A stretch of DNA of 44,039 nucleotides from Escherichia phage NHEP3: the sequence record PQ511147.1. One strand, written 5' to 3'. The notes beneath the pieces were generated by a model that saw only the letters and a list, made by a program, of their open reading frames with translations, was not told the DNA's origin and searched no databases. The translations under genes and the position numbers were made by a program. This document shows, piece by piece, positions 1-231 of this stretch. Each line of letters opens with the position of its first letter. Within the stretch, counting starts at the first letter, position 1.

Positions 1-231
1 ACCAACGGCAGAGCACCGTGGACGCGCCTGGTAGCCCCGACCTGGTTTGCAATCATGGATGCGACCGCGGGCATGGAAGACCCCGAGCCGTTGCGCGCGG
101 CTATCAGGGCTTACGCGCTTGCATTTGCCCGTGAGCGCCTAGCGTATCGCTTCGGTATTGGCGATAAGGCAGTGACAAACGTCGCCAGGATTAAAGCCCA
201 GCGTGAGCTATTCGCCCAGCTTGCGAAATAA
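1..231 (+). CDS. hypothetical protein, 3' portion; the 5' end is at 43853 across the circular junction (about 96 aa in total)
   Basis: Reading frame continues in phase from the ATG at 43853 through the duplicated 127 bp to a TAA at 229-231. Confidence 0.5.
   Translation, partial: TNGRAPWTRLVAPTWFAIMDATAGMEDPEPLRAAIRAYALAFARERLAYRFGIGDKAVTNVARIKAQRELFAQLAK

Follow-up and report, generated by a model that had tools for sequence, protein, structure and literature searches.

The 127-nt terminal overlap of Escherichia phage NHEP3 very probably arose in assembly of the circular map of a Dhillonvirus genome

The first and last 127 nucleotides of the sequence record of Escherichia phage NHEP3 (PQ511147.1) are the same, and our analysis indicates with high confidence that this identity is the overlap left by an assembler on circularising a contig, here the circular map of a terminally redundant phage, and not a terminal repeat of the virion DNA. 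The 127-bp repeat should accordingly not be regarded as a real biological feature. The window, by which we mean the whole stretch of 44,039 nucleotides that was analysed, is one complete copy of the genome of a virulent coliphage of the genus Dhillonvirus (HK578/SO-1-like). What is mildly new in our results is indirect evidence, drawn from the records of related phages, that packaging may begin at a defined point beside a duplicated iteron-like element, 161 nt upstream of the overlap.

Genome context of the terminal overlap

Direct comparison of the window ends showed positions 1-127 and 43913-44039 to be identical at 127 of 127 bases, and when all lengths were compared the prefix of the window equalled its suffix at this length only. 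The chance expectation for exact repeat pairs of 127 nt in 44 kb is ~3e-68, and the runner-up repeat of the window measures 165 nt at 82% identity. Removal of one copy of the overlap leaves a non-redundant unit of 43,912 bp (Table 1), a size inside the range of 42.6-47.1 kb for the genus. A prior sequence-only reading had reported the identity of the two ends and had described the window as a circular unit of about 43.9 kb; the former was reproduced base by base, and the latter is borne out by colinearity of the unit with the complete UDS3lw genome and by the continuity of relatives across the junction. GC skew tracks the direction of transcription and does nothing special at the junction.

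Megablast searches with both halves of the window retrieved 158-183 phage records, nearly all of them from Dhillonvirus phages of Escherichia or Shigella, and for both halves the matches had 91-93.5% identity and covered 92-100% of the query. Alignment with UDS3lw showed the unit to be colinear, with ~95% covered in both directions and four gaps: the tail-fibre region has two (601 and 1,139 bp), a third of 210 bp lies upstream of terS, and the fourth takes in the last 280 bp of the unit, where the open reading frame that spans the junction has its divergent 5' end. Gene order, a size of ~44 kb and a GC content of 54.6% are shared with the Dhillonvirus phages UDS3lw, SSL-2009a, UAE_MI-01, Opt-212 and BF9, and the window holds no tRNA genes. 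The guideline for a genus is 70% nucleotide identity, and both genome-wide identity and synteny place NHEP3 within Dhillonvirus. The corresponding guideline for a species is 95%, an identity to the window that no Dhillonvirus record reaches among the matches listed; because even the best listed identity falls under this value, NHEP3 is probably a separate, undescribed species of the genus, as far as sequence comparison can tell.

Several of the matching records are themselves unusual. OQ221563.1, MG065648.1 and PQ843332.1 are among the matches. Two records carry the names 'Acinetobacter phage NJ01' and 'Campylobacter phage A144' although they share ~88-92% identity with this genus of coliphages, which likely reflects host misassignment or contamination. 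The record of 'Escherichia phage P-GXEC-L2P5' is 88,607 bp long with two copies of the query region, and is probably a dimeric assembly.

The arrangement of the window ends in other genomes was read from a 2-kb junction query that joined the last 1,000 to the first 1,000 bases of the unit. A single place covers at least 80% of this query in 99 of 156 matching relative records, and in SSL-2009a query positions 1-1915 are covered in a single alignment piece. Since the junction query is covered in one place, the window ends are neighbours in the related genomes, and the contig is not a chimera.

The ORF that spans the junction (the junction ORF) opens with an ATG at 43853, stays in frame from 43912 into position 1 and encodes 96 amino acids. 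Its product matches phrog_9839, a family of unknown function, over the full length (E 1.3e-42), and its homologue is annotated as one intact gene in three relatives (UDS3lw_00001, PTXU06_00001 and PEC9_1). The proposal of the sequence-only reading that a gene spans the junction is thus upheld by the translation and by the full-length phrog_9839 match. The 127-nt overlap begins 60 nt after the start codon of this gene and shows no terminus-like feature.

Conservation around the junction ORF is uneven. Over the first ~150 nt of its 5' half (43853 to ~105) many relatives lose megablast similarity, and similarity to those relatives resumes at window 85-112; the N-terminal half of the protein is, as judged from these alignments, a mosaic or variable segment. 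The promoter region upstream is conserved, unlike the 5' half of the ORF, and the intergenic region in which it lies is 480 bp long. A predicted element within it (Table 1) may act as a promoter; a generic promoter and terminator scan of 43300-44039 called nothing, this site included.

Table 1. Coordinates of the overlap, the junction ORF, the putative packaging start and associated features in the NHEP3 window
Feature	Position	Strand	Basis or remark
Left copy of the 127-nt overlap	1..127	.	Inside the junction ORF; exact match to 43913-44039
Right copy of the 127-nt overlap	43913..44039	.	Redundant, for trimming to the 43,912-bp unit
Junction ORF, 5' part	43853..44039	+	Bases 43913-44039 repeat 1-127; translation, phrog_9839, annotated homologues
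Junction ORF, 3' part	1..231	+	Ends at TAA 229-231
Promoter-like element (TTGCAC, 17 nt, TATATT) on the ATTGGTTGC motif	43795..43823	+	Read from the sequence; 30 nt upstream of the junction ORF
Putative pac end, packaging rightward	43751..43752	+	Shared record starts, UDS3lw PhageTerm call, WF5505 redundancy
Region B, noncoding, with a long G/C hairpin and six copies of the octamer GCGGGACA	43445..43641	+	Between the helicase-primase gene and the putative pac end
Region A, second copy, 82-86% identical	15952..16147	+	Between the tail chaperone and tape-measure genes
Small terminase subunit (terS)	ORF 4347..4997	+	phrog_3064 'terminase', E 1e-72
Large terminase subunit (TerL)	4997..6382	+	Pfam Terminase_6N and Terminase_6C
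Portal protein	6393..7913	+	phrog_145, E 2e-136; Pfam DUF4055
ATTGGTTGC copies	429, 10237/10251, 26346, 29387/29398, 31059/31076, 34006/34018		Recurring motif
ATTGGTTGC copies, continued	37635/37651, 40570, 43384/43419, 43701, 43791/43822		Recurring motif

Origin of the overlap

The length of the overlap is characteristic of a particular class of assembly product. The largest k-mer accepted by SPAdes and metaSPAdes is 127, which is also a standard last k for long Illumina reads, and when a de Bruijn graph contig closes into a circle its two ends have exactly k bases in common. The NHEP3 overlap equals the SPAdes maximum k in length. Previous work has described artificial 127-bp overlaps at the termini of contigs from SPAdes (PMC5923482), the same 127 bp at the ends of the assembly of phage U136B (PMC8104045), and the same 127 bp once more in phage AXL1, for which terminal-repeat tests gave no confirmation (PMC9206674). 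Such artefacts consist of an exact prefix that equals the suffix, have a length of 127 and break the map without relation to gene boundaries; NHEP3 has all of these properties, and we see no observable difference between the artefact and its overlap.

The records of relatives agree with an arbitrary break. Among the matches listed, no relative has a record start or end at 43913/1 or at 127, and the record starts of relatives lie at terS, at the base corresponding to window 43752, or are scattered. The circle would have been cut at an arbitrary point, with the overlap left behind when the de Bruijn contig closed on itself, and assembly would close because no position of the map lacks spanning reads. 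Reads at all positions would be expected from terminally redundant, partly circularly permuted headful DNA, and the NHEP3 contig does close on itself, as headful packaging would allow.

The sequence-only reading had also held that an assembly overlap and a true direct repeat could not be told apart. This stands for the bare sequence; the context settles the matter fairly firmly, since the length of 127, the location within a conserved ORF, the fact that no listed relative ends there and the presence of a candidate end elsewhere together favour an assembly overlap. In relatives, the candidate physical end and the redundancy have another place and another size (window 43752, and 2,026 bp in WF5505).

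What has been published on related phages points in the same direction, with four of six literature reports describing headful (pac) packaging or circular permutation. UDS3lw was reported by PhageTerm as headful with a pac site; headful packaging was predicted by PhageTerm for Opt-212, in a study whose five phages all assembled as circles; BF9 was described as headful pac of the P1 type; and four of five 'bov' Dhillonviruses were scored as circularly permuted. The view taken from the sequence alone, that the record fits terminal redundancy or circular permutation, therefore agrees with most published work on Dhillonvirus. Like the headful pac phages P22, SPP1, Sf6 and P1, NHEP3 has a circular map and a TerS with weak similarity to P22 gp3 and Sf6 TerS (Pfam matches under the curated cut-offs), and its Dhillonvirus relatives share with this type a single defined start, a redundancy of ~4.5% in one case, and PhageTerm 'pac' calls.

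Rightward of the junction, at a distance of ~4.4-7.9 kb, come the packaging genes of NHEP3 (Table 1). The terS ORF begins with a TTG codon at 4347, and homologue lengths suggest that its true start is probably near 4425-4446. TerL is 98-99.6% identical to the TerL of other Dhillonvirus phages, followed at ~40% by those of Jerseyvirus and Kagunavirus siphophages, and its Pfam matches are confined to Terminase_6N/6C and a weak DEAD match. In a published TerL tree Jerseyvirus clusters with Dhillonvirus K19 and P1, and the Jerseyvirus K47 showed headful behaviour by PhageTerm, PFGE and restriction digest. Sequence searches of the PDB with TerL and TerS returned insignificant matches only, and an NCBIfam scan gave insignificant or sub-threshold matches only, which did not settle the packaging type.

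Of the readings that compete with a headful phage and an assembly overlap, the one that fares best would have unique cos ends elsewhere in the genome, as in EE09, with the contig closed through annealed, ligated or concatemeric DNA; the overlap would still be an artefact, and we consider this arrangement unlikely. It draws on a 10-nt 5' cos end, ATCTTAAGGG, that PhageTerm called in EE09 (PMC10673088). The EE09 record opens with this sequence, and its first base corresponds to window 31055, minus strand. At 31046-31055 (minus strand), however, the window reads ATATTGAGGG, with two mismatches in ten against ATCTTAAGGG between conserved flanks, and exact ATCTTAAGGG is absent from the entire window. 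The equivalent site moreover overlaps the -10 of a promoter-like ATTGGTTGC element. Non-conservation of the 10-mer led us to reject the EE09 cos site as a real end of NHEP3, and the EE09 call may be a PhageTerm artefact. Beyond the site itself, a Pfam search found no lambda-type GpA domain in TerL, reports on other relatives point to headful packaging, and the 2,026-bp redundancy of WF5505 is incompatible with non-redundant cos ends.

A genuine 127-bp direct terminal repeat, with every virion DNA running from 43913 (= 1) to 127 (= 44039) after T7-like cutting and duplication, is harder still to sustain, and we regard it as very improbable. The repeat is exact, as is the direct repeat of ~10^2 bp found at both ends of T7/SP6/K1E-like podophages, and the termini of one relative, bov25_1D, were scored 'fixed', from libraries made by Nextera tagmentation. 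Nextera tagmentation libraries are poorly suited to terminus calling. In length the repeat falls in the size class of short terminal repeats already known: those of K1E/K1F-like phages measure 165-289 bp, those of SP6-like phages 266-428 bp (PMC6563267). Against a true repeat stand its length, exactly the SPAdes maximum k, and its position inside a protein-coding gene so shortly after the start codon, as well as the absence, among the matches listed, of any relative record that begins or ends at the overlap boundaries and the single-place coverage of the junction query in most relative records. NHEP3 differs from the podophages in having its repeat in a coding gene, at an end not shared by the listed relatives and with a terminase of an unrelated lineage: published trees place the nearest TerL relatives outside the genus, those of Jerseyvirus and Kagunavirus, with headful packagers and not with the short-repeat clade, and four independent Dhillonvirus studies report headful packaging or permutation.

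Finally, a false circle, in which the contig would be part of a larger genome lying between copies of a real internal repeat of at least 127 bp (in principle a de Bruijn path may close through any repeat of k bases or more), is scarcely credible and was ruled out by completeness and colinearity, given that the unit has the full Dhillonvirus gene set and a size typical of the genus, aligns colinearly with complete relatives over ~95% both ways with gaps only in known variable regions, and has a junction sequence that relatives carry once and in the same context.

A candidate packaging start in Dhillonvirus

With the overlap read as an assembly product, the records of relatives offer another position at which virion DNA may end. 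The base corresponding to window 43752 is the first base in the GenBank records of at least nine independent relatives, namely PTXU06, WFI, WF5505, 101114B2, Zar3M, BMA1, UDS3lw, PEC9 and SP1; for SP1 this was deduced from how far region B lies from the record end. In WF5505 (MK373790.1) bases 1-2026 equal bases 45057-47082, an exact direct redundancy of 2,026 bp that begins from this same base and amounts to 4.5% of a 45,056-bp unit. A fixed left end combined with a right end ~4.5% beyond the unit looks like the first headful cut from a pac site.

How these records came to be oriented bears on their weight. Abrupt read ends were the points at which Korf et al. opened their contigs (PMC6563267), and three of the at least nine records with the shared start come from that study; the PEC9 paper describes no re-orientation step. 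Some of the records with this start may have been re-oriented to match earlier ones, and the WF5505 redundancy could be an overlap of a long-read assembler instead of a headful end. A conservation profile around 43752 (19 relatives) was discarded, as most of its loci had been retrieved by an exact 26-mer from that spot. Our literature search found no description of a pac site for the genus Dhillonvirus.

On the evidence of the relatives, we judge it about evenly balanced whether packaging starts between 43751 and 43752 and runs rightward. The terminase would then make its first cut at the equivalent pac end, and heads would fill in the rightward direction with ~104-105% of the genome, passing first the junction ORF and then the lysis genes and terS/terL. 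This would place the end of the first headful near window 1,800-1,900, and the true terminal redundancy would be ~2 kb and would differ between molecules. The putative pac end is intergenic and ~4.6 kb upstream of terS, unlike in P22 and SPP1, where pac lies inside the terS gene.

The distance of 161 nt between the junction and the putative pac end would be a coincidence of ~0.7% for a random break. One speculative idea is that graph tips arising from reads at the physical end could anchor the break of the cycle nearby.

Upstream of the putative pac end lies one of two copies of a ~200-bp element, regions A and B, which are 27.5 kb apart and each contain 5-6 direct GCGGGACA octamers (Table 1). 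In the whole window the octamer was counted 15 times, where 2.1 copies would be expected. The G/C hairpin folds in both regions (z about -2.1 to -2.2), and an Rfam scan of the whole window, regions A and B included, gave no match. Each of the 158 matching records contains the element, usually in two copies, and in the GenBank record of SO-1 the corresponding stretch already bears the annotation of a repeat region, 'B', with similarity to another, 'A'. An inverted partner of the element was also seen at 15913-15946.

The putative pac end falls 170-270 nt downstream of the GCGGGACA arrays of region B. Candidate roles for the element include origin iterons, a terminase recognition site or an RNA element. 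A more specific proposal, that the point between 43751 and 43752 is the precise packaging-initiation end throughout the genus and that the GCGGGACA arrays are the recognition site of TerS, or else origin iterons, we put forward as tentative and rather doubtful. If it were true, the placement of the contig break near a physical end would not be accidental.

Recurring motifs and other repeats

The motif that underlies the promoter-like element upstream of the junction ORF recurs throughout the genome. ATTGGTTGC has 14 exact copies in the window, mostly paired 11-35 nt apart and intergenic (Table 1), and when one mismatch is allowed 24 matches are found against 11.7 expected. The elements read as a -35 of TTGCA(C/T), a 17-nt spacer and a -10 of TATATT, and, to judge from their arrangement, they probably belong to one family of promoters, or of operator pairs, of the phage.

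Three near-identical hairpins, AAGGGGCC-NNNN-GGCCCCTTTTT, lie near ORF ends at 9422-9446, 15110-15134 and 28169-28193, and look like a reused intrinsic terminator. In the ORF at 26344-28161, which is tail tip/fibre-like, in-frame tandem repeats at 26869-27120 are spaced by 42, 63 and 105 nt and are 65-79% identical; they fall in the receptor-binding region, the least conserved part of the genome relative to UDS3lw. GAC/GAA-rich repeated stretches at 36822-37030 and 39947-40253, within the minus-strand ORFs 36797-37600 and 39824-40594, would encode acidic runs of Asp and Glu.

Discussion

Interpretation of the NHEP3 record as the circular map of a probably headful-type phage has direct consequences for how its sequence is used. 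Trimming of the last 127 bases gives the genome length of 43,912 bp, and the ORF that appears split at the window ends is a single intact gene. On contigs of this kind, a 'direct terminal repeat' flag signifies completeness and circular closure and not the structure of the virion ends.

The coordinates of database records, by comparison, can carry usable evidence on the ends of phage genomes. The start shared by at least nine records, together with the 2,026-bp redundancy of WF5505, points to where packaging may begin in Dhillonvirus.
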